Of a DNA stretch of 64,000 bases, positions 45,460-61,684 are shown one piece after another. Made by a program: the position numbers and the translations under genes. The stretch spans positions 64,001 through 128,000 of the forward strand of contig JAZDJN010000087.1 in NCBI GenBank assembly GCA_043803945.1, in the 5' to 3' direction. The notes below the pieces were generated by a model. That model was given only the letters and a program-made list of their open reading frames with translations. It ran no database searches and had not been told where the DNA came from. Numbering within the stretch: the stretch's first letter is position 1; the number at the start of each line of letters is the position of its first letter. This stretch comes from a bacterium (GTDB taxonomy: Bacteria > Bacteroidota > Ignavibacteria > UBA10030).

Positions 45460-47595
45460 ATGAAACGATTTCTTCACCAAATGACGCTGGTTTTCCTTGT
45501 CGGTTGTTTGGCGTTGATGGTTGGCTGTTCATCATCGCAGGCCGTACGACAGGATATCAGCACCGCACAGAAACTGGGTGTTGTCAAAGCCGGGCCGTTC
45601 GATACCGGCAAGATGTGGACGTTCGATTTTCCCCCCATGGAGTATTTTAAGAAAACGTATAATTTCAATCCCACAAAAGAATGGTTCGAGAAAGCCAGAA
45701 CCGCTGCAGTGCGCATTCCGGGCTGCTCCGGAGCCTTTGTCTCGGAAGACGGGCTCCTGATGACGAACCACCATTGCGCCCGCAGCGCTTTGGTAGCCGT
45801 CAAGAAACAGGGAGAGAAGCTCGAGGTCGATGGCTTCTATGCTCCAACGCTCGAAGAGGAACGGAAGGTTGCCAACAGCTACGTCGATCAATTGCTTGTG
45901 ATCGAAGACGTTACCAAAGAAGTGCTTGCCGCATTCGATAAGGGAACCACGGATAAGGAAAAAGATTCATTGCGTGCAGCGGCGATGAGCGCCATCCGGA
46001 CCCGGTACACCGAAGAGTACAAGAAGAAGAGCAGCGATAACATGATCTTCAACGTGCTCTCATTTTATAACGGCGGCCGCTATTCACTCTATGGCTATAA
46101 ACGCTACAACGATGTGCGTATTGTTTTTGCACCGGAAGAAGCTGTTGCATTCTTTGGCGGCGATCCGGATAATTATACCTATCCGCGCTATGATTTCGAT
46201 GTATCGTTCTTCCGCGTCTATGACAACGGCAAACCGTTGAAGACAACAAATTTCTATTTCCCCTTCAGCAAAGAGGGCGCCCAGGAGGGTGAAGCGGTAT
46301 TCGTTCTCGGCACACCCGGCAGGACCAATCGCCTCTTGACCATTGCCCAGTACGAAACGTTGCGCGATGTCTCCTATCCCGCCCAGATCGACGGTTACAA
46401 CAGCCAGGTGAATGCGATCAACGAATACCTGGAAAAAAATCCCGACAAGAAAGTCGATTACATCAATACGATTTTTGGAATCACCAACATGCAGAAACGA
46501 ATCATCGGGTATCAGGATGGTTTGGTCAATCCTCTGTATTGGGCAAAGAAGGAAGATTTCGAAAAGACCTTCAGAGAGGCGGTGCTTTCCAATACGCAGC
46601 TCAAGGCAAAATATGGCGATTTGTGGAAAGAGATCGGTCTTTACGAAAGCCAGATACGTGCACTAACACCTGAACTGAACGGCTTGACTGCAACAAGTCG
46701 GACACAGTACTTCAGCCTTGCCGCAAGTGCCGTCAACACGGCACGTGGTACTGGAAGAGCCGGAGGAGGCGGCAGGCCGGGAGGCGGTGGTGGTGGCGCC
46801 CGCACAGTTACTCCGGAGATTGAGAAACATATGCTTGTCGATCAACTGGAATTCATGAAAAAGAATCTCGGCAGTGAGTATCCGGCATTCAAAAAACTTC
46901 TCGCCGGGCGCTTGGTGCAGCAGGCCGCTGAGGAGTTTTCGAAAACAGCACTGACGGTTGACAGAGAAAAATTCAATGCGATGAAACCTGAAGATGTTCT
47001 GAAATCGACCGATCCGATTATTACTTTTGTTGCCGAGACGCAGCCTCGCATTACAGAAATCCAGAGGACCCTGACTGAACTGCGGGCAAAGCAGACACCG
47101 TTGATTCAGGCGCTTGGCCGGGCAATGTATGATGTGTACGGCACCAATATTCCTCCCGATGCCAGCGGCTCGCTGCGCATGTCCGACGGCGTGGTAAAAG
47201 GATTCAGCTATAACGGCACTATTGCTCCGCCGGCAACAACGTTCTATGGAATGTACGACCGGTACTACTCGTTCGGGAAGAAAGAACCGTTCTTCCTCCC
47301 GGAACGCTGGGCTAATCCACCGGCAGATTTCAAGATGAGCACACCAATGAATTTCTCATCCACGAACGATATCATCGGCGGCAACTCCGGCAGCTCGGTT
47401 GTGAACAGGAATCTGGAAGTAGTCGGATTGATCTTCGACAGCAACATCGAAGGCCTTGCCGGCAACTCGATTTTCGACACGGAGAAGAATCGGGCGGTCT
47501 CAGTTCACTCAGCCGGAATCGTTGAAGGCTTGGACAAGATTTACAGAGCTACCCGTATCGCGAATGAATTGCGGAGCAGGAAGATTATACAGTAG
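45460..47595 (+). CDS. S46 family dipeptidyl peptidase (lipoprotein)
   Basis: GKMWTF, TNHHC, FGGDPDN, DIIGGNSGS, LIFDSN. Confidence 0.95.
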   Translation: MKRFLHQMTLVFLVGCLALMVGCSSSQAVRQDISTAQKLGVVKAGPFDTGKMWTFDFPPMEYFKKTYNFNPTKEWFEKARTAAVRIPGCSGAFVSEDGLLMTNHHCARSALVAVKKQGEKLEVDGFYAPTLEEERKVANSYVDQLLVIEDVTKEVLAAFDKGTTDKEKDSLRAAAMSAIRTRYTEEYKKKSSDNMIFNVLSFYNGGRYSLYGYKRYNDVRIVFAPEEAVAFFGGDPDNYTYPRYDFDVSFFRVYDNGKPLKTTNFYFPFSKEGAQEGEAVFVLGTPGRTNRLLTIAQYETLRDVSYPAQIDGYNSQVNAINEYLEKNPDKKVDYINTIFGITNMQKRIIGYQDGLVNPLYWAKKEDFEKTFREAVLSNTQLKAKYGDLWKEIGLYESQIRALTPELNGLTATSRTQYFSLAASAVNTARGTGRAGGGGRPGGGGGGARTVTPEIEKHMLVDQLEFMKKNLGSEYPAFKKLLAGRLVQQAAEEFSKTALTVDREKFNAMKPEDVLKSTDPIITFVAETQPRITEIQRTLTELRAKQTPLIQALGRAMYDVYGTNIPPDASGSLRMSDGVVKGFSYNGTIAPPATTFYGMYDRYYSFGKKEPFFLPERWANPPADFKMSTPMNFSSTNDIIGGNSGSSVVNRNLEVVGLIFDSNIEGLAGNSIFDTEKNRAVSVHSAGIVEGLDKIYRATRIANELRSRKIIQ

Positions 47596-48532: not shown

Positions 48533-48805
48533 ACCGCTGATGTCGCAGATTATGGGATTGCACTGAGTGAAAGCTCTATAAAAATTAATTCGGTGAAATC
48601 ACTTAATCAGTGTAAATCAGCGGTAAAGATTCGTATCTTTAAAGGCGTTTGATGGAGTGAGATCTCTGAAGTTGCTGCAGTTTCACTTCTGTCGTATGGA
48701 TCACGGTCTATCGGGTTCCATACCACTGAAGCCGTCCTGCAATAAAACCCCAGAACACAATATTACTCCGTACTACTATCATTCACTTTAAGAAAGGTGA
48801 TCCGT

Positions 48806-50926
48806 ATGAAACATGTTGTCTCAAAGCTTTGGTTGGTTGTTGCGCTGAGCGCAATGATCTTCCTGATCGGCTGCTCGTCGCAACAGGCCGTAAAACCCGA
48901 AGTCGGCAAAGGGTTAGTCAACGTCAAAGCCGGTGAGTTCGATACCGGTAAGATGTGGACCTTCGATTTTCCGCCGATGGACTATTTTAAAAAGACCTAC
49001 AATTTCAATCCGACAAAAGAATGGTTTGAGAAAGCCCGGCTCTCCGCGCTGCGCTTGCCCGGCTGTACAGCCGCCTTTGTTTCGGAGGATGGCCTCGTCA
49101 TGACAAACCATCACTGCGCTCGCGGTGATCTCCAGGCGGCAAATAAAGAGGGTGAACAGTTGCACATCAACGGTTTCTATGCTCCGACGCTGGACGATGA
49201 GAGAAAGACAAGAAGTTATGTCGATCAGTTGATCGTCACTGATGACGTTACCATGGAAATTCAGAAGGCGTTCGACAGTGGTACCACCGAAGCGGAAAAA
49301 GCGAGCCTCCGCGGCCAGAAAATGACTGAAATCATCAGCCGCTATACAATGAAGTATAAGGAATCCACCAAAGACTCCATGACATTCCAGATCGTTACTT
49401 TCTACAACGGGGGACGTTACTCTCTCTACGGGTACAAACGCTATACCGATATCCGCCTTGTCTTTGCCCCTGAAGAAGTGATGGCGTTCTTCGGCGGTGA
49501 TCCCGATAACTTTACCTACCCGCGTTATGACATGGACATCAGTATTTACCGTGTGTATGAAAACGGCAAACCGGTGAAGACTTCGAACTTCTTCAAGTTC
49601 AGCAAAGAGGGAGCAAAAGAAGGCGAAGCCGTGTTTGTGCTCGGCAATCCGGGAGGCACGGGTCGACTGCTTCCTATTTCACAGCTTGAAACCCTGCGCG
49701 ATATTACTTATCCTGCCAACATTAACTTTTTAGAAACTCAGGTCAACGCGTATACTCAGTACATTGAGAAGAACCCTGACAAGAAGTCGCAATACCTCAA
49801 CACTCTCTTCGGTATGGCGAATAGCAGGAAAGCGATCACCGGATATCTTACCGGATTGACCGACCCTGTATTCTGGGCAAAGAAACTCGACTTCGAAAAG
49901 AATTTCCGGAACACCGTCGTGAACAATCCAGGGCTCAAAGCAAAGTATGGCGACCCCTGGAGCCAGATGGCACTTTACGAAGCTGAGCTTCAATCGCTGC
50001 TTCCTGAAGCGAATGCATTAAATGTTTCACGCCGAAGCCAGTATTTCAGCCTGGCGATCAATGCGGTCGCTTATGCCGACTCAGTGAAAGCCGGAAAGAA
50101 TAAGCCGAAGCCGCGATACATGCGGATGTCGCCGATCGAAGTTGATAATATTGCAACCATCGACCTCCTCGCGTTCATGCAGAAGTCACTCGGAACCGAT
50201 TATCCTGCGCTGAAAGCATTGATGAAGAACCGGACTCCGGTTGAGGTAGTTGAGGACTTCGTAAAAAATTCTGCCGCTGCATCAAAAGAGAAATTTGAAA
50301 CGCTGGTGAACGGTTCGCCGGATGCCATCCTGGGCTCCACCGATCCTCTTGTTGCTTTTGTCGTGCAGACTCGTGGACGCCTTGCGCAGCTTCAATTCAA
50401 GATCGGAGATCTGCGGGCAAAACAAGCACCATTGATCCAACTGCTTGGCCGCGCGATGTACGATGTCAATGGCACAAAGATCCCGCCCGATGCTACCTTT
50501 ACTCTGCGAATGGCAGATGGTGTTGTAAAGGGATATGAGTACAATGGAACTATTGCTCCGCCCGTGACAACGTTCTACGGGTTGTATGACCGCTATTATT
50601 CGTTCAGCAAGAAAGATCCATGGGAATTGCCTCAGCGCTGGGTCAATACACCTGCAGATTTTAATCTGAGTACACCAATGAACTTTGTCTCCACCAACGA
50701 TATCATCGGCGGCAACTCGGGCAGTTCTGTTGTAAATAAGAACCTTGAAGTTGTCGGTTTGATCTTCGATGGGAACATCGAAAGCCTGCCGGGATATGTT
50801 ATTTTTGATGAAACGAAGAACCGCAGCGTCTCCGTGCATTCTGCCGGTATTCTTGAGGCACTGGAAAAGATGTACCGTGCCGACCGGATCGTCAAAGAAC
50901 TCCGTCAGGGAAAGATGGCTCAATAA
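48806..50926 (+). CDS. S46 family dipeptidyl peptidase (lipoprotein), paralog 2
   Basis: GKMWTF, TNHHC, PDATFTLR, DIIGGNSGS, LIFDGN. Confidence 0.95.
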   Translation: MKHVVSKLWLVVALSAMIFLIGCSSQQAVKPEVGKGLVNVKAGEFDTGKMWTFDFPPMDYFKKTYNFNPTKEWFEKARLSALRLPGCTAAFVSEDGLVMTNHHCARGDLQAANKEGEQLHINGFYAPTLDDERKTRSYVDQLIVTDDVTMEIQKAFDSGTTEAEKASLRGQKMTEIISRYTMKYKESTKDSMTFQIVTFYNGGRYSLYGYKRYTDIRLVFAPEEVMAFFGGDPDNFTYPRYDMDISIYRVYENGKPVKTSNFFKFSKEGAKEGEAVFVLGNPGGTGRLLPISQLETLRDITYPANINFLETQVNAYTQYIEKNPDKKSQYLNTLFGMANSRKAITGYLTGLTDPVFWAKKLDFEKNFRNTVVNNPGLKAKYGDPWSQMALYEAELQSLLPEANALNVSRRSQYFSLAINAVAYADSVKAGKNKPKPRYMRMSPIEVDNIATIDLLAFMQKSLGTDYPALKALMKNRTPVEVVEDFVKNSAAASKEKFETLVNGSPDAILGSTDPLVAFVVQTRGRLAQLQFKIGDLRAKQAPLIQLLGRAMYDVNGTKIPPDATFTLRMADGVVKGYEYNGTIAPPVTTFYGLYDRYYSFSKKDPWELPQRWVNTPADFNLSTPMNFVSTNDIIGGNSGSSVVNKNLEVVGLIFDGNIESLPGYVIFDETKNRSVSVHSAGILEALEKMYRADRIVKELRQGKMAQ

Positions 50927-50965
50927 CGACCACAGATTACACTGATTACACTGATTATGTAAAAG

Positions 50966-50999
50966 AAAGAGGGGCTCTAAAAAGCCCCTTTTTTCTTTT
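50966..50999 (+). terminator. Rho-independent terminator
   Basis: AAAGAGGGGCT-CTAAA-AGCCCCTTTTT plus T-tract. Confidence 0.8.
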
Positions 51000-51225
51000 C
51001 TGGGAGGGAGCTCCCGCCAATCCGCCAAAAAAGATGGAGGACGCAATAAGCGTAATAACAACCTGAGGTCGTCCAAAAAGAAAAAATACCAGGGCGTCAC
51101 GAACCACTTCGTGACGCAAAATGCGAAAAACATTCAGATTTAATGTGTCACGGTGTGGACCGTGACACCCTTGGCGTACTTTTTAGTCAGTCTCGGGATA
51201 GGTCTGCACCCGACCACCCTTTCAC

Positions 51226-51287: not shown

Positions 51288-51446
51288 ATGAATACCTTGA
51301 AACGTTACTGGTACGAAAAGCCGATACAGATCACGCTGCTGATTCTCTTCATCGGCTCGATTGTTCACGGCATCATGGCCGGCGAACTCACGCTCGTACA
51401 AATTGAGAGCTCGACGCTCTGACTCGATTGTATCGGAATCGGGTGA
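51288..51446 (+). CDS. 52-aa membrane selenoprotein with UxxC motif (CD1871A-like CxxC family)
   Basis: MNTLKRYWYEKPIQITLLILFIGSIVHGIMAGELTLVQIESSTL-U(TGA 51420-51422)-LDCIGIG; SECIS-like hairpin follows; precedes the 4Fe-4S gene, selA and selB. Confidence 0.88.
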
Positions 51447-51452
51447 TTCCGA
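51433..51452 (+). promoter_or_regulatory. SECIS-like element
   Basis: TCGGAATC-GGGT-GATTCCGA, perfect 8-bp stem; G-first loop begins 19 nt after the UGA. Confidence 0.85.
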
Positions 51453-51458
51453 AAACAT

Positions 51459-52355
51459 ATGGAACAACAAGAAAAACGAAAATCCTACCGCATCCTTCGA
51501 ACCATCCGCTCAACGGTTGCATTCTCGCTCGGCGGAATCCTTGCTAATAGTTACTTCAAAGTCTTCTCCACAAAGCAAATCTATGACGGCCCATTAAAGC
51601 AGGCATGCGTTCCCGGATTGAATTGTCATGCGTGTCCAACAGCATACATGTCCTGCCCGATCGGGATTATTCAGGCCGGTGCGGCGCAAGGGTGGATTCC
51701 CTTTTCAGTGATCGGATATCTGGGAACGATCGGTATGATTTTCGGCCGCTCGGTGTGCGGGTGGCTGTGTCCCTTCGGATGGTTGCAGGATCAGATGTTT
51801 AAAATAAAAAGTAAGAAGGTTAAGATTCCGGCCTTCCTCAAAAATGGTAACTATGTTTCCCTGGTTGTTCTTGCCATCATTCTTCCTGCGTTGACAGAAG
51901 CGCATTGGTTTTCGCGTATCTGCCCATGGGGAACAATGATTGCAGGCATCCCATGGGTGATATGGAATCCGGTCAATCCGATGATGGCCATGCCGGTCAT
52001 TGAACCGGGAATGGTCGGATGGCTGTATGCGATGAAGATTGTGATTCTGATGTTCTTCCTCATCATGTTTGTTTTGACCAAGCGGCCATTCTGCCGAACG
52101 CTTTGCCCGCTCGGCGCCATCTATGCGCAGTTCAACCGTGTAAGTTATATGAGAATGCAGGTTGAGGGACGCTGTGTCGGTTGCGATCTTTGCGTTGAGG
52201 TTTGTCCCGTTGATATCAAAATTTCTGACGATCCAAATTCTCCCGATTGTATTCGCTGTCTTAAATGTACTGTTTGTAAAAACGTTCACGTTCGATGGGG
52301 GCTAGGCCATGACCCAAGACCCGAAGTCTGTGCTCCAGCAGCTTCCCAAAGTTGA
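51459..52355 (+). CDS. Membrane 4Fe-4S binding protein (NapH/MauN/YccM-like)
   Basis: CVPGLNCHACP, CPIG, CGWLCPFG, FCRTLCPLG, CVGCDLCVEVCP, CIRCLKC, several TMs. Confidence 0.92.
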   Translation: MEQQEKRKSYRILRTIRSTVAFSLGGILANSYFKVFSTKQIYDGPLKQACVPGLNCHACPTAYMSCPIGIIQAGAAQGWIPFSVIGYLGTIGMIFGRSVCGWLCPFGWLQDQMFKIKSKKVKIPAFLKNGNYVSLVVLAIILPALTEAHWFSRICPWGTMIAGIPWVIWNPVNPMMAMPVIEPGMVGWLYAMKIVILMFFLIMFVLTKRPFCRTLCPLGAIYAQFNRVSYMRMQVEGRCVGCDLCVEVCPVDIKISDDPNSPDCIRCLKCTVCKNVHVRWGLGHDPRPEVCAPAASQS

Positions 52356-53727
52356 TAAGCTGCTGGAAGATTCTCGAATTGCCACACTCTTAGAGCACCA
52401 TTCTCGATCAAGAGTGGTGGAGGAAATTCGGAGCTATCTCGATAGCCTCCGATCGGAAATCCTCTCTGCATCAAGGACAACGCTCCCTGAATACGATGCG
52501 TTAGTGGAGCGATTCGTCCGGGATGCAGAGAAGAAACTCCTTCCCGGTTTGCGGCGCAGCATCAACGGAGCCGGCATTATTTTACACACCGCACTTGGCC
52601 GCGCACCGCTTGCATCCGTTGCACAACAAGCGCTGATGATCGCCGTTGACCATTACTCCACGCTTGCGATCAATCTCGAAACGGGAAAGAGGGGCGATCG
52701 CAATGCGGCAGTGGAGAAACTGCTCAAGGCCATCACCGGAGCAGAAGCGGCAGTCGTTGTCAACAATAACGCCGCGGCAACACTGTTGATCCTCAACACG
52801 CTGGCAGAAGGGAAAGAGGTGATCGTCTCCCGCGGTGAACTGGTCGAAATCGGTGGATCGTTTCGCATTCCCGATGTCATGAAGCGGAGTGGAGCAAAAC
52901 TTGTAGAGGTGGGCACAACTAATCGCACGCACCTGAAGGATTACAAAAATGCGATTACTCCAGAGGCCGGCATCATACTTAAAGTACACCAGAGTAATTA
53001 TCGCATCATCGGATTCACCAGTCAGGTTGAAGTCGGCGACCTTGCATCGCTTGCACATCAGCATAATCTCAAGGTTGTCGACGATATCGGCAGCGGAGCT
53101 CTTGTAGACTTCAGCCGCTGGGGATTGCCGAAAGAACCTGTGGTGCAGGAATCTGTTGCCGCCGGTGCCGACGTTACATGTTTTAGCGGCGACAAGCTCC
53201 TGGGTGGCCCACAGTGCGGCATTATCGTAGGCAAAAAGGAGGTAATCGAAAAAATTAAGGGCAACCAATTGATGCGAGCACTGCGCTGCGATAAACTCAC
53301 GTTTGCCGTGCTCGAGGCAACATTGCTGCTCTTTCTCGATGAGGCCAAACTGCTGAAGCGTCATCCCGTCATGAAAATGCTTACGATGCCGCAGGAGGAA
53401 ATCAAACGACGCTGTACCCGCCTCAAGCAGAAACTTGCCAGAGTTATCGGTGAACAAGCGACGATGTCGGTTCAGCAGGATTCTTCCGAAGTCGGCAGCG
53501 GCTCGCTGGCCGCAATGAACTTACCGACGTGGGTACTCTCTCTTGAATTTCATACGCTCTCTGCCGATCTGCTGGCAAAAAAACTCCGGCAATGCACCAT
53601 TCCCATCATCGGCAGAATCAAAGAGAACAAATTTTTGCTCGATGGAAGAACGATTCGTGACGATGAGTTCGAGTTGATCATGCAATCATTTCGTGAACTG
53701 GCAACTACGCTGCTCCCCCATGCCTGA
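52309..53727 (+). CDS. selA: L-seryl-tRNA(Sec) selenium transferase
   Basis: [62 protein letters not shown]. Confidence 0.98.
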
Positions 53728-55618
53728 AGCAGGAAACCGACATATCGTTCTCGGCATGGCGGGCCACATTGACCACGGGAAAACAGCACTTGTCAAAGCA
53801 TTGACCGGCACCGACACCGACCGCTTGAAGGAAGAAAAGGAACGAGGGATGACAACCGACCTCGGCTTCGCGTTCTTCGGCGACACCATGACGATTATCG
53901 ATGTGCCGGGCCATGAGAAATTCGTCAAGACCATGGTTGCCGGCGTCAATACTGTGGATATCGCCATGCTCGTCATCGCTGCTGATGACGGTATTATGCC
54001 GCAAACACGCGAACATCTCGAGATCCTTCGCCTGTTGCAGATTTCAAAGGGGCTTGTCGTTCTCAATAAAATCGACATCGTTGAACAAGAGTGGCTCGAC
54101 CTCATCACCGCCGATATCAGGGCATTGCTGAAAGGGAGTTTTCTGGAACATGCCCCCCTTGTATCCGTCAGTGCGCTGACGGGAAAAGGGATACAGAACC
54201 TTAAACGCGAACTTAATACGCTCGCAGGTTCTATTCAGGCAAGGAGAGACAAGGGAATCTTTCGTCTTCCTATTGACCGCGTATTCACTATTAAAGGTTT
54301 CGGCACTATCGTGGCCGGGACAGTCATATCCGGCAGCGTTCACGTCGACGATTCGGTGGAACTTCTCCCGCAGGGAAAAACTCTGAGAGTGCGCGGATTA
54401 CAGATCCACGAGCAGAATGTGTCAGAGAGCCGGATCGGTTTTCGTACGGCAATCAATCTGATGGGAATAGAAAAAGAATCCATTGAGCGGGGCGACGTAA
54501 TCGCGGCACCCGGTTTTTTCAAACCGACGTACATGATCGACGTACAATTTTCCTATCTGGCAGGGGCATTGCACGCACTTGAAAACCGTACACGTGTGCG
54601 CGTCCATATCGGCACCAGTGAAGTTATTGCCCGCATTATCTTACTGGATCGGGAAGCCTTTGAACCGGGCGCAGAGGGATTTGTACAAATCCATTTTGAG
54701 CAGCCAATTGTCGCAGATGCCGGCGATCGATTTGTCGTCCGAAGTTACTCTCTGCTGCAGACCATTGGCGGCGGTTCCGTTCTGGACACTCATCCGGAAA
54801 AACATAAACGATTCAAGGAGGAGGTCCAACACCGGCTGCAAACCATTGCACAGGGCGATACGGAACAGCACATCCTTGAGCATCTCATCCGGCTTGACAA
54901 TGCACTCGTCGATGGCAGCACATTGTCGAAAAACGCAAGCATCCCAATTGACACCTGTCTTCTCCATCTGCAAACCCTGGTGGAAAAGCAACAGGCCATC
55001 CGGTTTGGAGCGGAACAGTGGTATGCCGTTGCCAACCTTTCGATGCTGCGGAACCGTGTCTCGGAGATCCTGAAAAAATTCCACCGTGAACAGTCATTAC
55101 GAACCGGCATGCTGGTTGGAGAATTGCATTCACGAATCAAACCTCCCATTGAAAAGAAATTGTTCGATGCCGTTTGCCGTGCACTGCAGGCGGAGGGTAT
55201 GGTGCAATTTATCGGTGACCGTATTGCGCTCGCGGAATTTTCTATTCAACTGACACCTGAACAGAAGGAACTGAGGAAGAGGATCGAAAAAGAATTTGCT
55301 AAAACACCGCTTATGCCCCCAAATCCGGATGATCTTCTCCCTGGCCTTGGCAAAGAGAGCCAGCACATTTTTCAACTGATGATCGACGAGGGAGAGCTTG
55401 TCCGTCTTGACGAGGGGATTGTGATGCATAGAGAAGGGATTGAGTACGCGAAGAAAGAGATTACCACTTTTCTGAGCCAGAAGGACGCAGCGGCATTGGG
55501 CGAGATCAGGCAGCATCTGGGCATCACCAGAAAATATGCTCTTCCCCTGTTGCTCCATCTTGATACTTTGGGTATTACTGAGCGTGATGGGGATGTCCGA
55601 CGGCTTAAACAACGATAA
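53720..55618 (+). CDS. selB: Selenocysteine-specific elongation factor
   Basis: [28 protein letters not shown]-terminal winged-helix TRKYALPLL. Confidence 0.98.
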
Positions 55619-55655
55619 CACTATGCTCTGCTCCAGGAAAGGACGATTCATCAAC

Positions 55656-56927
55656 GTGGATCAAACATATCAGGGTTTGTTAAAGGAGATCGGCGTTAAT
55701 CTTGAGTTGCACGATCAGCTCATCGAGTACAACAATCGCAATCACGAACGCACGCACCGTTCGGCTAAGAACCGTCCGAATGAAATGGCATACTTTGATG
55801 AATCGTTTCATGCTTCGCATGGCAGCCGTGTTGCCGAAATCTATGAATACCGGAAACGGGGGGGCAAGTCGATTGGAACATTTTGCATCTATGTGCCTGA
55901 TGAAATTGCACTCGCGGCAAATGTTCTGCCGATCCCGTTGTGCGGCGGAAGCCACTGGTCTGTCGATTATGCCGATAAGATGCTGCCGCGGGATATTTGT
56001 CCACTGATTCGCTCCACGTTTGGTATGGCATTCAGCGGTACCTGCCCTTACAAGAAACTTAAGGATGGCGTGGTTGGAGAAACAACATGCGATGCGAAGA
56101 AGAAAACCTGGGACCTGATGAAGTTTGAGGTTATGGAAGTTCCTCAGAAAAAAAATGAGCGGGACAGGGAGTTATGGCGGGCAGAGGTTCGTGACTTCAC
56201 AACCTATGTCGAAAATCTTTCCGGTGTGAAAGTGACGCCGGAGCGCCTGAAAGAAACCATCGCTCTTGTGAACAGCAAACGGACAGCACTCCAGCGTGTC
56301 AATGAATACCGGAAGCTCCCCCATCCCCCGATTTCAGGACTCGATGCACTGCTTGTCTCACAGGTCGCATTGAATCAGGATATCAAGACGTTTGTCGATG
56401 GCTGCGAACGGCTGCTGGAAGAACTTCACGAACGGGTTGAGAAGGGAATATCGGCATTCTCGAACAGCGGGCCGCGAATTCTGCTTGCGGGGACACCTTC
56501 TCCCATGGGCAATGCAAAGGTACACTATGCCATTGAATCTTCCGGCATGCGAATTGTTGCCGATGAATCGTGCACCGGTATGCGGTACTTCAGAAACATC
56601 GTCGATGATACGCATGACAATCTCGACGACATGCTGGACGCAGTTGCCGACCGCTATTTCAATATCGATTGTTACTGTTTCTCGCCCAATAAAGAGCGGG
56701 TGGACAATATTCAGACGCTGGTTGAGGAGTACAGCGTCGACGGAGTGGTACAAAATATTCTTTCCTTCTGCCAGGGGTATAATGTTGAGGCAAAGGTGAT
56801 TGAAACGGCATTGGTGCAGAGGAAGATTCCATCGATTAAGATTGTCACCGACTATTCGTATGAAGACGTGGAGCAGTTAAGAGTGCGGCTTGAGTCTTTC
56901 CGCGAGATGATGGAGAGTAATTGTTGA
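55656..56927 (+). CDS. Double-cubane-cluster (DCCP)-type reductase, 2-hydroxyacyl-CoA dehydratase superfamily
   Basis: GTFCIYVPDE, LCGG, CPLIRS, CPY, ETTCDAKKK, DESCTG, IDCYCFSPN, FC; GTG start with AAGGA upstream. Confidence 0.85.
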   Translation: MDQTYQGLLKEIGVNLELHDQLIEYNNRNHERTHRSAKNRPNEMAYFDESFHASHGSRVAEIYEYRKRGGKSIGTFCIYVPDEIALAANVLPIPLCGGSHWSVDYADKMLPRDICPLIRSTFGMAFSGTCPYKKLKDGVVGETTCDAKKKTWDLMKFEVMEVPQKKNERDRELWRAEVRDFTTYVENLSGVKVTPERLKETIALVNSKRTALQRVNEYRKLPHPPISGLDALLVSQVALNQDIKTFVDGCERLLEELHERVEKGISAFSNSGPRILLAGTPSPMGNAKVHYAIESSGMRIVADESCTGMRYFRNIVDDTHDNLDDMLDAVADRYFNIDCYCFSPNKERVDNIQTLVEEYSVDGVVQNILSFCQGYNVEAKVIETALVQRKIPSIKIVTDYSYEDVEQLRVRLESFREMMESNC

Positions 56928-57218: not shown

Positions 57219-58316
57219 ATGACACAAGAACAAGACAACACAGCGTCGAAGCCAAGTGGGCGGCAAATTCGCCTGATGAGCTTCAGCGCATGCGCCGGTT
57301 GAGCCGGCAAAGTGAGCCCGGCCAGGTTGGCCGGAATCCTTGACAAATTGCCGCGCGTCAAGTCGCCCGATCTTCTGGTCGACATGGAAACCATGGACGA
57401 CGCCGGTGTGCTACGCCTTTCTTCAGAACTGGCATTGGTGCAAACGCTCGATTTCTTCGAACCGATTGTCCATGATCCGAAAAGCTTCGGACGCATCGTG
57501 GCTGCCAACAGCCTTTCCGACATCTGGGCAATGGGGGGCACTGCATTGACAGCAATGAATATTCTTGCTTACCCCTCGAAGAAAATTTCCATCGATGTGA
57601 TCGAGGAACTGCTCATCGGCGCGTGCGAAAAACTGCAGGAGGCGAATGTCATTCTTGTCGGCGGACACACCATGGAGATGCAGGAGATTTTCTATGGCAT
57701 GAGCGTTACCGGCACAATCCATCCCGATCGTGTGCTCACCAATGCAAAAGCCCGGATTGGCGACAAGCTTCTTCTGACAAAACCGCTCGGTGTTGCCGTC
57801 TATTGCGAAGCGCTTCGCAACGACGGCCTGACGGGCGAACAATACAACGAAGTGATCGGAAGCATGGAGCGATTAAACCTCTATGCCTCACAGGTGCTGC
57901 AACGGTTCGATATCAGCGCTATGACCGATGTCACCGGCTTTGGATTACTCGGCCATGCACTGCCGATCGCCCGCAATGCAGGCGTTACGCTGGCAATAGC
58001 TGTCCATGATATACCTCATCTCTCCTCATTCTTTGATCTCATGCAGCAGTTTCTTCCAACACAAACATGGAAGAGCCATGAATATGTCAAGCCCTTTACA
58101 TGGAGAGATGAGCATATTTCAACAGATCAATATGCACTGCTGGGAGAAGCTCAGACATCAGGAGGATTGCTCGCGGCAATCAATCCCAAGCAAGCAAACG
58201 AAGCGCTGAGCGCATTACACGCTGCGGGAGATACAGCGGCAACGGTGATTGGAGAAGTAGTTGGACTTGTTAATACTTCAGAGGGACATCCGGTTTTTCT
58301 TCAGATTCTCCCCTAA
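57219..58316 (+). CDS. selD: Selenophosphate synthetase, selenocysteine-containing
   Basis: IRLMSFSACAG-U(TGA 57300-57302)-AGKV in frame with DDAGV, QTLDFF, AANSLSDIWAMGG, GGHT, TDVTGFGLLGH, QTSGGLL. Confidence 0.96.
57318..57334 (+). promoter_or_regulatory. SECIS-like element of selD
   Basis: CCGGCCA-GGT-TGGCCGG, perfect 7-bp stem; loop G 23 nt after the UGA. Confidence 0.85.
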
Positions 58317-58483: not shown

Positions 58484-59290
58484 TTGAAACAACTCAAGAA
58501 CATTACACTGAAGAATGTACAGGAGGTGTACAACGGAGCAGAAGGAGATCTTTGGGAGCTCGTTATGGGAGAACAAATCCATATCGGCGGATTCAGTTCT
58601 TCGATGGCGCTGGCAGAGAAAGCCGGAATTGGCGGCGGAATGCAGGGAGTCGATCTCTGCTGCTGCAATGGCGCAGGGATGCGTTTCCTTGTACGCTTCC
58701 GCGGTGTCGAAAAAATGACGGGTGTGGACGCAACCGAAACTGTTGTTAATCGGGGACGGATGCGCTGTGAGAAAGAGGGATTCACGGAGAAAATTCAATT
58801 CAATCTGGCTGACGTGACCGCCAGCGGTTTACCAAACGAATCGGCAGATTTTATCTGGGGTGAAGATGCCTGGTGCTATGTTGAAGACAAACCGAAATTG
58901 ATTTCCGAGGCTGCGCGTATTGTTAAACGAGGCGGCACTCTCGCGTTCACCGACTGGGTGGAAGGCCCGACCGGATTGACCGATGACGAAGCAAATCGAT
59001 TCCTGACGTTCATGAAGTTCCCAACACTTCCTTCCATTCAGGAATATGCCGATCTCTTGAAGAGTAATGGCTGCCAGGTGCTTGTTGCCGAAGATACCGG
59101 CCAATTTGCTCCCCATGTTGATCTGTATCTGGATATGCTCAACAAACAATTAACCTATGATGCTCTCAAAATCATTGGGTTCAATGTGAATCTGATGCAG
59201 GCGATGGGAGGAGAGATGATCTTTATGCAGGGATTAGCCCGTGCCGGGAAGATTGCCCAGGGCAGGTTTATCGCGAAAAAGAACTTTTGA
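58484..59290 (+). CDS. Class I SAM-dependent methyltransferase
   Basis: AAGGAG plus TTG start; HIGG, motif I VDLCCCNGAG, TGVDA, ADFIWGEDAWCY, KRGGTLAFTDW. Confidence 0.9.
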   Translation: MKQLKNITLKNVQEVYNGAEGDLWELVMGEQIHIGGFSSSMALAEKAGIGGGMQGVDLCCCNGAGMRFLVRFRGVEKMTGVDATETVVNRGRMRCEKEGFTEKIQFNLADVTASGLPNESADFIWGEDAWCYVEDKPKLISEAARIVKRGGTLAFTDWVEGPTGLTDDEANRFLTFMKFPTLPSIQEYADLLKSNGCQVLVAEDTGQFAPHVDLYLDMLNKQLTYDALKIIGFNVNLMQAMGGEMIFMQGLARAGKIAQGRFIAKKNF

Positions 59291-59297
59291 CCATCCT

Positions 59298-60275
59298 ATG
59301 AAAAAAAATCTCTACACAAGCCCTTTTATTCCTGCCGAATGGATTGCCGCACATGGCTTGCAGCCCTGCCGTGTCATCCCGGATTTCCAGGAGAACGAGG
59401 AGGAGTGTAATCCATCGCAAGGGATCTGCCGCCATATGTGGCAGTCAGTGCAGCAGGTCAACCGCGACACCGAAGCTGCCGGTTCAATTTTCACGACGAT
59501 CTGCGATCAGATGCGCCGCGCTCCGGAATGCCTCGATGCTTCCGCCTCCTCCCGTTCCTTTCTCTTCCACGTTCCAAAAACATGGCAATCATCTTCGTCA
59601 TTTGAATGGTACGTTGCCGAACTTCGGCGATTGGGTTCCTATCTGATCCAGCGTGGCGGCATCGAACCATCCGCAGATTACTTAAAGAACATTCTGCAGT
59701 CCTATGATAAAAACCGCAGGATACTTTTGTCTGTCAGGCCATACATGCCTGCGACCGCATACGCCGAACTTCTCTATCGTTTTTACACAACAGGAATAGT
59801 CGATTCTCCTCCGATCGACCGAGCTTATCGAGAGTTCGGAATTCCACTTGCACTGATCGGCGGACCCTTGGCACGAATCAACTGGTCGCTCATCAATGAA
59901 GTGGAAACTGCGGGTGGCACCATTGTTCTCGATGGCACTGAAAACGGTGAACGGACATTTCCCGCGCCGTTCGATCAAGCTCGATTATCGGAAAATCCAT
60001 TCCTCGAAATGGCGCATGCGTACTTCGATTTCATTCCCGATATTTTCCGCAGACCTAATGATGGCTTCTTCCACTGGCTTCACCGCGCTCTGTCAGCCCG
60101 GTCCATTCGCGGGGTCATTCTCATTCGAAACGTTTGGTGCGACCTCTGGCATGCAGAAGTGCAAAGGATCCGTGAGAGTATCCGGGAGCCTCTTCTTGAT
60201 CTCGACGTCGATGGCGGAGATGCATTCGCAAGAAACCAGACAAGAATTCAAGCCTTTCTTGAGTCCCTCCAATGA
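59298..60275 (+). CDS. 2-hydroxyacyl-CoA dehydratase family (HgdA/B-like) subunit
   Basis: PFIPAEWIAAHG, IC, TTICDQMRR, RGVI...WCDLW, TRIQAFLE. Confidence 0.85.
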   Translation: MKKNLYTSPFIPAEWIAAHGLQPCRVIPDFQENEEECNPSQGICRHMWQSVQQVNRDTEAAGSIFTTICDQMRRAPECLDASASSRSFLFHVPKTWQSSSSFEWYVAELRRLGSYLIQRGGIEPSADYLKNILQSYDKNRRILLSVRPYMPATAYAELLYRFYTTGIVDSPPIDRAYREFGIPLALIGGPLARINWSLINEVETAGGTIVLDGTENGERTFPAPFDQARLSENPFLEMAHAYFDFIPDIFRRPNDGFFHWLHRALSARSIRGVILIRNVWCDLWHAEVQRIRESIREPLLDLDVDGGDAFARNQTRIQAFLESLQ

Positions 60276-61684
60276 CCGAGCCTCCACAACAACTTACACT
60301 CCATCAGTGGGATTCCCGGTATGTTGAACTGACAGCCTTCGGGTGGTCTCCACGCTGGTACGACGGCCCGCTTTGCCGCCATGCCGAGGGGGGCGATACA
60401 CGCCTTCTCCGCCTCAGGTTCGATAATTCCACGGAAGCATTAACGCTCTGGAATTTTTTACTCACCGAGGAAGACCGGCTGAAACATTTTCGTGAACAGG
60501 GTGCTATTCTGATTGGGACGATGAAAGACCTTGGCACTGTACCGGTGATGGCATTTGCACTTCCGAATGTCGTTGCCTTCTACCCTGATGGTGCCTGGTG
60601 GATACCATGTGTTATGGAGATGTCAACGGGGCTTTTGGAGATTGCCGACTCTCTGGGAATCGATGAATCGTTCTGCCCCGTCCGTGCCATGCTCGGTGCG
60701 TTTGTTACACAGAAGCATTTTCCAATTCCGGATCAGCTCATTTGCAGTGTTGGCGCAACGTGTGATGATTTTTCTGCCATCGCACAGCGTCTGGAAGCCA
60801 TGGGGCATCCCATTATGTGGTGGGAAATTCCACATCGCAATCCGCCGCAAGAAGGAGAAGAAGCCGTTACACTTCCCGGAGGATTTCAAGCATCGCCGCC
60901 ACAATTGTCCTTCGTTAAACACGAGTTAGAAAGAGTCAAAGGTATTTTGGAATCCGCATCGGGATCTGTCCTTGACGATGAAATGCTCTCAGCCGGAATT
61001 CAACGGGCAAATACCGTACGGCGCTGTTTGAAAGAGTTGCGACATCTCACGTTTACTGCGCCGCTCTGTCCTATGCCCGCTCTCGAGATGCTCATCGCCG
61101 AGATGCTCGCCATTCATTTCTGTTCCGACAGAGATGAATCCCTGTTCGTTCTTGAGGGATTGTTGAACCGGGTCCGCCAGCGGATTGCTGATCGACAGGG
61201 ATATTTTGGCGAAGATGCTGCACGGATCTTTTGGGTTAATCCAGTTGCAGACCTTCGGGCGATGAACATTCTTGAACGGTGCGGGGGTCGCCTCTGCGGT
61301 ACGGAATATCTCTTCAGCCACGCATTGGATGAGATTCCAACCGGCATTGCCCCTCTTGAGGCATTAGCACAGATGGCTCTTGCGGATCCAATGGTTGGTT
61401 CAACGGCTGATCGAGCCGATCGCATTATCCGCGACATACAACTGTATGGCGCCGAGGGGCTCATCATTTCGCGGATTCCCGGTGCGAGCCATTGCGCCCT
61501 TGAAGGAAAGATTATTGCCCGGCAGGTTCAGGAAGCACTCAATCTTCCCGTTTTGGAAATAGAGGTGCCACCATTATCCGATGCATTTCGCCTGGCACTC
61601 AATACTCGTATTTCCGCACTGGTCGAAGTGATTCACGGCCGGAGGGCAAAGGAACTTTCGCTCCAATCTCGTTCTCTATCATGA
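60272..61684 (+). CDS. 2-hydroxyacyl-CoA dehydratase family (HgdA/B-like) subunit
   Basis: FCPVRA, ATCDD, GASHCALEG, LPVLEIE, TRISALVE; ATGA overlap with the previous gene. Confidence 0.85.
   Translation: MTEPPQQLTLHQWDSRYVELTAFGWSPRWYDGPLCRHAEGGDTRLLRLRFDNSTEALTLWNFLLTEEDRLKHFREQGAILIGTMKDLGTVPVMAFALPNVVAFYPDGAWWIPCVMEMSTGLLEIADSLGIDESFCPVRAMLGAFVTQKHFPIPDQLICSVGATCDDFSAIAQRLEAMGHPIMWWEIPHRNPPQEGEEAVTLPGGFQASPPQLSFVKHELERVKGILESASGSVLDDEMLSAGIQRANTVRRCLKELRHLTFTAPLCPMPALEMLIAEMLAIHFCSDRDESLFVLEGLLNRVRQRIADRQGYFGEDAARIFWVNPVADLRAMNILERCGGRLCGTEYLFSHALDEIPTGIAPLEALAQMALADPMVGSTADRADRIIRDIQLYGAEGLIISRIPGASHCALEGKIIARQVQEALNLPVLEIEVPPLSDAFRLALNTRISALVEVIHGRRAKELSLQSRSLS

Follow-up and report, generated by a model that had tools for sequence, protein, structure and literature searches.

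A probable selenocysteine-containing branch of the CD1871A family of small membrane proteins, encoded beside the sel genes of an Ignavibacteria bacterium

The stretch of DNA analysed here (the window) comprises 64,000 nucleotides (nt) of contig JAZDJN010000087.1 from a bacterium of the Ignavibacteria and contains, at positions 51288–51446 of the forward strand, a small open reading frame (ORF) that is interrupted by an in-frame TGA. Comparison with homologous loci makes it highly probable that this is a genuine selenoprotein gene, encoding a single-pass membrane protein of 52 residues with a Sec-x-x-Cys motif, where Sec is selenocysteine. Alignment places the gene in a divergent, Sec-bearing branch of the CD1871A family of small CxxC proteins; the Cys family is known and curated as NF040920, and it is the Sec-containing branch that is new.

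An In-frame UGA in a Small Membrane Protein Gene

51288–51446, forward strand: predicted small selenoprotein gene, 52 codons including Sec-45 plus a terminal UGA (from translation, alignment and hydropathy)
51420–51422, forward strand: UGA predicted to encode Sec-45, aligned with the first Cys of CxxC in homologs
51433–51452, forward strand: predicted Sec insertion sequence (SECIS) hairpin, with 5' arm 51433–51440, loop GGGU 51441–51444 and 3' arm 51445–51452
51444–51446, forward strand: terminal UGA, the predicted true stop, shared between loop (last base) and 3' arm (first two bases); not kept as UGA in homologs

The frame that opens with the ATG at 51288 reads MNTLKRYWYEKPIQITLLILFIGSIVHGIMAGELTLVQIESSTL-U-LDCIGIG-stop, where the codons after TGA 51420 (CTC GAT TGT ATC GGA ATC GGG) spell LDCIGIG and are followed by TGA 51444. 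The predicted protein has a basic N-terminus, one transmembrane (TM) helix, seen in the hydropathy profile as a single strongly hydrophobic segment of 17 residues in the N-terminal half, and the C-terminal sequence U-L-D-C-I-G-I-G. A sequence-only reading of this DNA had described the ORF, its one helix, the in-frame TGA, LDCIGIG and the second TGA, all of which are where it placed them. It had also expected standard gene callers to miss or shorten the gene, as they do: translation table 11 yields an ORF of 44 residues (51288–51422), and the public protein collections hold only shortened 44-residue forms, namely P0002, from the window itself, and P0003, which is 89% identical.

Homologs Carry Either Cys or TGA at the Same Column

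A query of 52 residues is too short for direct searches, and the family was therefore collected through the gene of its NapH-like partner protein, which lies directly downstream. A word-indexed single-sequence search matched the two 44-residue forms P0002 and P0003 only, an exhaustive phmmer search matched one 44-residue form and P0124, and comparison of the window protein with 60 relatives by single sequence gave chance TM-like matches only. P0124 is a protein of 3065 residues in which six separate stretches match the query (E 6.4e-13, 32% identity), probably as repeated hydrophobic segments. Through the partner we gathered 80 loci from species genomes and 80 from metagenomes (160 in total), which were scanned for a small ORF ending in C-x-x-C-(I/V/L/M)-G; three hits inside larger ORFs (L106:6227, L168:2669 and L184:666) were dropped by hand as chance matches. 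A further homolog (L199, in genome G273) emerged when 401 genomes from the phylum of the window were searched by profile. The NF040920 profile found no match across these 401 genomes, among which the window's own genome (G000) and the controls were likewise unmatched, so that this negative carries no weight.

A small CxxC-type ORF stands beside the NapH-like gene in all 80 genome loci and in 74 of the 80 metagenome loci (154 of 160 in all), and some of the six loci without the motif have little or no upstream flank. The association between small proteins ending in CxxCIG(I/L)G and NapH-like 4Fe-4S membrane proteins, which the sequence-only reading had given as background, is thus borne out in these loci, all of them found through the partner gene. 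The gap between the two genes is 0–20 nt in most of the 98 pairs measured, and in three loci (L061, L102 and L108) the small ORF lies downstream of its partner.

TGA replaces the first Cys in 14 of the 154 motif-bearing loci (L038, L039, L040, L041, L047, L052, L107, L118, L119, L120, L121, L125, L159 and L166) and also in G273, whose small ORF reads ...IESATL-U-LDCIGIS and whose partner protein is 67% identical to that of the window. Together with the window, this gives 16 sequences with TGA at this column (TGA forms) to set beside 140 with Cys (Cys forms), of which 139 enter the hairpin comparison. Homologs lacking Cys at the TGA column had been named beforehand as the outcome that would speak against Sec; all 140 Cys forms align a Cys with TGA 51420, and 15 other sequences share the TGA, in keeping with the proposal that Sec replaces the first Cys of CxxC. 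In every TGA form x-x-C-(I/M)-G continues in frame past the TGA, and the third codon positions vary synonymously (TGT/TGC; ATC/ATA/ATT; GGA/GGG/GGC/GGT). The amino acids are kept while third positions change, which argues for selection at the protein level downstream of the TGA.

A SECIS-like Hairpin Is Kept in TGA Forms

The hairpin in the window begins 10 nt past the first TGA and is a perfect 8-bp stem, TCGGAATC / GGGT / GATTCCGA, with a stability of -10.3 kcal/mol for the stem-loop alone. Its 5' arm consists of the Ile-Gly-Ile codons, the spacing from UGA to apical loop is 18 nt, and the terminal TGA of the small ORF contributes its T as the last base of the loop and its GA as the opening of the 3' arm. 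Comparable hairpins (perfect, -10 kcal/mol or lower, at the same offset and with a G within the first two loop bases) follow 14 of the 2551 TGAs of the window (0.55%, both strands), two of these 14 being TGA 51420 and the selD Sec codon (57300). The bacterial SECIS (bSECIS) model in the legend to Fig. 2 of PMC13188914 specifies a loop of 3–9 nt, an upper stem of 4–16 bp, an early G (a G in the first two loop positions), a UGA-to-loop distance of 16–37 nt and a minimum free energy (MFE) of -7.5 kcal/mol or lower, and the hairpin of the window agrees with every one of these constraints.

Across the TGA forms, G is found at loop position 1 or 2 in 15 of 16 and the UGA-to-loop spacing is 17–23 nt. 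With G273 excluded, 14 of 15 have a perfect hairpin of -5 kcal/mol or lower starting 13–20 nt from the TGA (median -7.5), and the MFE over 37 nt is -7.5 or lower in 11 of 15. Cys forms have a median of 0 at the same position, with -6 kcal/mol or lower in only 7 of 139; the Mann-Whitney p value for this difference (1e-9) is overstated because the sequences are related.

The arms of these hairpins are lineage-specific in sequence and nonetheless complementary (GGAAUC/GAUUCC, GGGAUC/GAUCCC, GGAGUC/GACUCC, GGGUUA/UAACCC, GGGCUA/UAGCCC, GGCGUUC/GAACGCC and GGCAUUC/GAAUGCC), with the 5' arm made up of Ile-Gly-(Ile/Leu/Val) codons and the 3' arm of stop codon and spacer. When 3' halves were swapped between sequences, only 18% of the pairings were at -5 kcal/mol or lower, compared with 14 of 15 of the sequences' own pairings. 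In the six sequences that share the same register, RNAalifold gives 7 pairs, 3 with double compensatory changes and none with one-sided changes, and 97.6% of the cells are paired; the covariation score of 0.495 (0.213 for shuffles) was not reached by any of 500 shuffles. The G273 hairpin (UCGGGAUC/AGUU/GAUCCCGG) has the 18-nt spacing and the straddled terminal UGA of the window, with an A-U pair exchanged for G-C. The hairpin with a GGGT loop reported from the window alone is therefore present as described and, beyond that, is kept with compensatory changes in TGA forms and mostly absent from Cys forms.

These data can also be read with TGA 51420 as a true stop and a product of 44 residues, in which case the downstream conservation and the hairpin would belong to the leader or initiation region of the NapH-like gene, for example as an attenuator or a structure that sequesters its start site. 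Such a reading would suit the 44-residue product given by gene callers and databases, the end of the hairpin 6 nt short of the NapH-like ATG, and the occurrence of a hairpin at this place in a few Cys forms too. We consider it very unlikely, since a 44-residue product would be without the only residues that are invariant in the family (C, C and G), all 16 TGA forms keep the amino acids of the seven codons that follow the TGA, with synonymous variation at third positions, and the TGA forms end at the same place as the 140 Cys forms. The hairpin is, moreover, largely missing from Cys forms despite the same downstream gene, and SelB is encoded in the window's genome and scores above the curated cut-off in all seven of the other searchable genomes with a TGA form. 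An intrinsic terminator at the hairpin is ruled out, there being no U-run 3' of it and no signal in the terminator scan, and this too argues against a true stop.

Decoding of the Two UGAs and Position of the Stop

In the mechanism that we favour, SelB carrying Sec-tRNA(Sec) would bind the GGGU-loop hairpin and UGA 51420 would be decoded as Sec; the ribosome would then melt the hairpin, translate the seven codons for LDCIGIG and terminate at UGA 51444, which is without a hairpin at the required distance and is, on the comparison of homologs, the normal stop. That two UGAs 24 nt apart should be read differently is what the standard distance-dependent model of bacterial SECIS function predicts. 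Placement of the terminal UGA inside the hairpin, a feature emphasised in the sequence-only reading, is real in the window, but it is neither conserved nor essential, as the stop is UAA or UAG in 9 of the 16 TGA forms and UGA in 6. The stop of homologs may be a UAA in the 3' arm, a UAG in the 5' arm, or lie beyond a hairpin that is fully coding, as in L038, where five extra codons make the entire hairpin coding. The remaining TGA form, L052, has a 46-residue extension with a second TM helix: in this sequence (L052:3536-3958, Acidimicrobiales) U-L-D-C-I-G-I-F runs on into the second helix, which ends KWKA. This two-pass variant fits a location of the UxxC motif on the outer face of the membrane.

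The frame raises the further possibility that both UGAs are recoded or read through, fusing the small protein to its NapH-like neighbour, for the starts at 51288 and 51459 share a reading frame that the two UGAs alone interrupt, four sense codons (FRKH) precede the Met of the partner, and L120 is arranged likewise. We regard a fusion as extremely unlikely. The partner lies in a different frame in G273 (the closest relative), L041 and L125, so that in-frame arrangements amount to 2 of 5 cases, close to the one in three expected by chance; 9 of 16 TGA forms have UAA or UAG as their stop; the sequence past UGA 51444 is A-rich and offers no second hairpin; and the small protein is fused in none of the five longer NapH-like relatives (P0064, P0096, P0098, P0100 and P0107).

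The Gene Stands at the Head of a sel Cluster

51459–52355, forward strand: NapH-like polyferredoxin membrane protein, 298 residues, starting 12 nt past the small ORF stop
52309–53727, forward strand: selA, L-seryl-tRNA(Sec) selenium transferase (TIGR00474, 593.8 bits)
53693–55618, forward strand: selB, Sec-specific elongation factor (TIGR00475, 377.3 bits)
55536–56927, forward strand: double-cubane-cluster anaerobic reductase (NF040772, 415 bits), between selB and selD
57219–58316, forward strand: selD, itself a selenoprotein (324.4 bits), with Sec UGA 57300–57302 in the context ...SACAG-U-AGK...
C87:129548-129642 of G000: tRNA-Sec (62.9 bits), about 1.5 kb past the end of the window

The strongest single clue, which the sequence-only reading did not mention, is the genomic context. 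Small ORF, NapH-like gene, selA, selB, double-cubane reductase and Sec-containing selD follow one another on one strand, and a terminator-like site at 50965–50994, after the upstream peptidase gene, together with the same-strand sel genes downstream makes the small ORF look like the first gene of the sel transcription unit. Decoding of the TGA as Sec, proposed from the letters alone, has its machinery in the same genome, with selA, selB and selD as three genes directly downstream and the whole Sec toolkit of G000, tRNA-Sec included, within about 15 kb on one contig. The SECIS of selD (a 7-bp upper stem CCGGCCA/UGGCCGG with a GGU loop, 22 nt from its UGA) is comparable to that of the small ORF, and table 11 shortens selD as well, to an ORF starting at 57312.

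In the sample of 401 genomes, selA occurs in two and the small ORF in the same two, G000 and G273, which have the order small ORF, NapH-like gene, selA in common. The unrelated L038 genome has the order selA, double-cubane reductase, BcrAD-type ATPase, redoxin-like gene, small TGA ORF, NapH-like gene, selD. The requirement for SelB holds in the expected direction only: among three Cys-form genomes of the same branch, one has a SelB above the cut-off, one has EF-Tu-like matches only and one has a partial C-terminal match.

A quick IQ-TREE analysis of the partner proteins (58 rows) places 14 of 15 TGA forms in one well-supported clade of 23 rows, alongside 9 Cys forms, while L107 (TGA) is sister to L169 (Cys) in the other clade. 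Parsimony counts six changes between Sec and Cys on this tree, of which at least two are forced by well-supported branches. The window groups with G273 and next with L038 and Desulfobacterota sequences, and this grouping, with the distribution in 2 of 401 genomes, suggests that the Sec island of the window lineage was acquired horizontally; the pair of small ORF and NapH-like gene, which heads the selA-selB-selD operon there, would apparently have arrived with the operon as one island.

A decaying copy of a Cys gene, or an error of sequencing or assembly, could in principle have produced the TGA, which is one base away from TGT or TGC in a genome that is a draft of 118 contigs. This explanation is barely credible: the same TGA recurs in 16 sequences from different assemblies and several phyla, with the at least two (six by parsimony) Sec/Cys changes noted above, each TGA form has its own complementary hairpin, and P0003, an independent copy 89% identical, ends at the same codon.

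The NapH-like Partner and a Possible Redox Role

The partner combines a Fer4_5 domain (PF12801, 59.2 bits) with two CX3CP motifs and, at its C-terminus, a 2x[4Fe-4S] domain; an additional loop has the pattern Cx5CxxCx6C. Polyferredoxins of the NapH, MauN, NosR and CcoG type likewise combine Fer4_5, two CX3CP motifs by TM helices and a C-terminal 2x[4Fe-4S] domain; the partner differs from them in its invariant Cx5CxxCx6C loop, in its conserved small CxxC/UxxC companion and in falling far below the NapH cut-offs (58.6 against 213 bits for TIGR02163, and 54.5 against 234 bits for PRK09477). No nap genes were found among the neighbours scanned. A profile search returned 386 database proteins, and all of the 120 listed are unnamed or 'hypothetical'. 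Solved structures offered nothing useful for either protein, the partner matching a ferredoxin motif only.

In the family, a basic N-flank leads into one TM helix, followed by an acidic or neutral tail (about 22 residues) and, at the extreme C-terminus, the invariant C/U-x-x-C-x-G. The N-flank carries a more positive net charge than the C-tail in 136 of 146 members, a bias from which an N-in, C-out orientation is predicted. The hydropathy of the partner places C50–C66 and C155 on the face opposite its Fe-S domain (the outer face), with the two CX3CP motifs inside. Some relatives of the partner are fused at their ends to a 2x[4Fe-4S] ferredoxin (P0098), a Pyr_redox_2 fragment (P0096) or a GltD-type Fer4_20 domain (P0107); these fused domains and the partner's own 2x[4Fe-4S] domain must be cytoplasmic, and the fusions hint at cytoplasmic electron donors of the NapH-like family. 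A complex prediction for the Cys-form pair of L043, made with 37-row alignments, had a score of 0.23, below the mark of 0.32, and counts neither for nor against an association.

Where Sec occupies the attacking position of a CxxC motif, it usually marks a catalytic redox residue, and on that ground the module is probably a thiol/selenol redox device. In the model that we propose, the small protein would be the small subunit of the co-transcribed NapH-like polyferredoxin; its basic N-terminus would stay in the cytoplasm and its C-terminal Sec-x-x-Cys would lie at the outer face of the membrane, beside C50, C56, C59, C66 and C155 of the partner, acting as a selenol/thiol redox centre to which the cytoplasmic [4Fe-4S] clusters of the partner would supply electrons. 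The pair would then probably be a two-subunit transmembrane electron conduit in which the small subunit provides the Sec/Cys redox centre of the outer face.

The protein might instead be a real selenoprotein with a selenium-specific role, as a membrane reductase or carrier giving reduced selenium to SelD, its SECIS coupling the translation of NapH-like gene, selA and selB to the availability of Sec-tRNA and SelB. In E. coli a SelB-binding, SECIS-like element governs selAB; in the window the stop and hairpin of the small ORF lie 6–12 nt from the next start codon, and the small ORF opens the sel operon of both G000 and G273, stands among sel genes in L038 and co-occurs exactly with selA in 2 of 2 genomes of the phylum sample. 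We nevertheless judge this role unlikely, because no sel genes lie within the fetched flanks of 12 of the 15 other TGA loci or of any Cys locus inspected, the family, abundant in Clostridia and Desulfobacterota, stands there in unrelated contexts, and a Sec predicted on the outer face is ill-suited to supplying cytoplasmic SelD. With sel neighbours confined to G000, G273 and L038, a selenium-specific function would not be general. Other neighbourhoods comprise TauE with a trypsin-like protease and a CDF transporter; ABC ATPases with regulators; and rhodanese with MauE/DoxX, a multihaem cytochrome and Sir2.

A bolder version, to which we give only a small chance, makes the pair a membrane module, unrecognised until now, of the Sec trait itself, mobile together with selA, selB, selD and tRNA-Sec and handling selenium at the membrane, with the stop-straddling SECIS coupling downstream translation to Sec insertion. 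If that were so, the module would travel as a mobile Sec island into a phylum otherwise without Sec, and the coupling would amount to a feed-forward or autoregulatory switch for the Sec machinery.

Relation to Known Families

The only NCBIfam match of the window protein is to CD1871A_fam (NF040920; 22.9 bits, E 5.7e-5, profile positions 2–38 of 38), a profile that is matched by 30 of 37 sampled Cys forms (best E 5.2e-19) and, within the sub-branch of the window, by 9 of 25 members (E ≤ 0.01). Judged from the aligned sequences rather than from a published definition, CD1871A proteins resemble the window protein in their length of about 45–55 residues, basic N-terminus, one TM helix and C-terminal C-x-x-C-(I/V)-G-(I/L)-G, and they too adjoin a NapH-like Fer4_5 protein. 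The branch of the window differs in having 'N-G-x-x-L-[U/C]' in place of 'V-L-x-K-A-x-x-I-C' and in the replacement of the first Cys by Sec.

With the UxxC selenoproteins of Table 1 of PMC13188914 (thioredoxin, glutaredoxin, DsbA-like and SaoT) the window protein shares Sec as the first residue of a CxxC-type motif, Cys homologs that far outnumber Sec forms, repeated exchange between the two and a bSECIS directly after the UGA. Unlike them, it has no thioredoxin fold and is a single-pass membrane peptide of 52 residues. Its motif stands only 8 residues from the C-terminus, and the SECIS consequently runs across the stop into the spacer.

A SECIS need not lie upstream of the stop: for expression of mammalian TrxR in E. 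coli, one was engineered downstream of the stop codon. In the 'UXX-star' families (PMC13188914, Table 1), with Sec close to the C-terminus, the SECIS is likewise partly or wholly past the stop and need not be translated; in the window, by contrast, Ile-Gly-Ile codons form the 5' arm, and the 3' arm consists of stop codon and spacer. TsoA, a LULAXC selenoprotein (NF045695) represented by its row in the same table, shows a superficial L-U-L-x-C likeness but has UxxxC where the window has UxxC, and the window protein gave no match to NF045695 in NCBIfam at E ≤ 10.

Table 1 of PMC13188914 (2026), with its 119 families and subfamilies of selenoproteins, contains neither NF040920 nor a small membrane UxxC peptide. 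Such a peptide is also absent from the nine new families of the deep-Sep paper, whose supplementary lists lie outside this comparison, and from those parts of Haft & Gwadz (2022) that were available to us. The name 'CD1871A' does not occur in the literature searched, although an earlier record of the Sec form in supplementary tables or RefSeq is possible, and a literature search for a selenoprotein with NapH or a polyferredoxin gave nothing relevant among the papers listed. The branch thus seemingly represents a selenoprotein family missing from current catalogues.

Discussion

Several observations weigh against the proposal of a selenoprotein gene with a redox role. The fold of 51415–51470 has an energy of -13.9 kcal/mol, which 9 of 200 shuffles equal or better (z = -2.0), so that the hairpin alone is weak evidence. 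One TGA form, L107, has only a long imperfect hairpin whose apical loop is without an early G, and the hairpins of L039, L040 and L119 are weak (-5.1 kcal/mol). Three Cys forms (L108, L061 and L077) carry a hairpin at this position, which may be a fossil SECIS left after replacement of Sec by Cys or may be unrelated to Sec; a hairpin at the SECIS position is therefore not strictly tied to Sec. That of L108, with 10 bp and -10.7 kcal/mol, is strong despite the Cys codon. The window protein falls below the curated cut-off of NF040920 (22.9 against 32 bits), the pair is not adjacent to sel genes outside G000, G273 and L038, and the role suggested for it as a redox subunit is drawn from synteny and predicted topology only.

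If the assignment is correct, it adds a selenoprotein family that standard annotation cannot see, its members being reduced to 44-residue 'hypothetical' fragments without the invariant residues. The protein would be membrane-anchored and would rank among the smallest selenoproteins, and it would offer a handle on a widespread uncharacterised module, that of the CD1871A-type peptide and the NapH-like polyferredoxin. Within the window's phylum the gene marks, and may help to explain, a rare Sec island that appears to have been acquired horizontally (selA in 2 of 401 sampled genomes). The SECIS hairpins of the family, lying before, across and after the stop, form a natural test set for the positional rules of bacterial Sec insertion.

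Neighbouring Genes and Further Candidates

According to section 24 of Haft & Gwadz (bioRxiv 2022), NF040772 proteins are almost confined to genomes that encode SelD; in the window the NF040772 gene lies physically inside the sel cluster. After selD come two more genes of the HGD-D family (59241–60275 and 60272–61684) and a methyltransferase. The methyltransferase at 58484 was considered as a selenoprotein and ruled out, as it comes after a TAA and offers no in-frame candidate for Sec.

No FdhA-type match above the cut-off was found in the G000 genome. Two AhpC/TSA (Prx-like) genes (C87:148388-148756 and C87:155101-155442), both 20–27 kb downstream on the contig of the window, and a thioredoxin-like gene (C91:26072-26338) each have one in-frame TGA and are likely to be further selenoproteins of G000.

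In four loci of Desulfobacterota type (L039, L040, L118 and L119) the small TGA ORF is separated from the NapH-like gene by an extra ORF of 130–160 residues that matches no family; TauE/SafE and a trypsin-like protease are encoded upstream, and downstream there is a CDF transporter. Upstream of the sel island the window carries tandem paralogs of S46 (Dpp7-like) dipeptidyl-peptidase (45460–47595 and 48797–50926) and, on the opposite strand at 50282–51133, an ORF of 283 residues without a family match.

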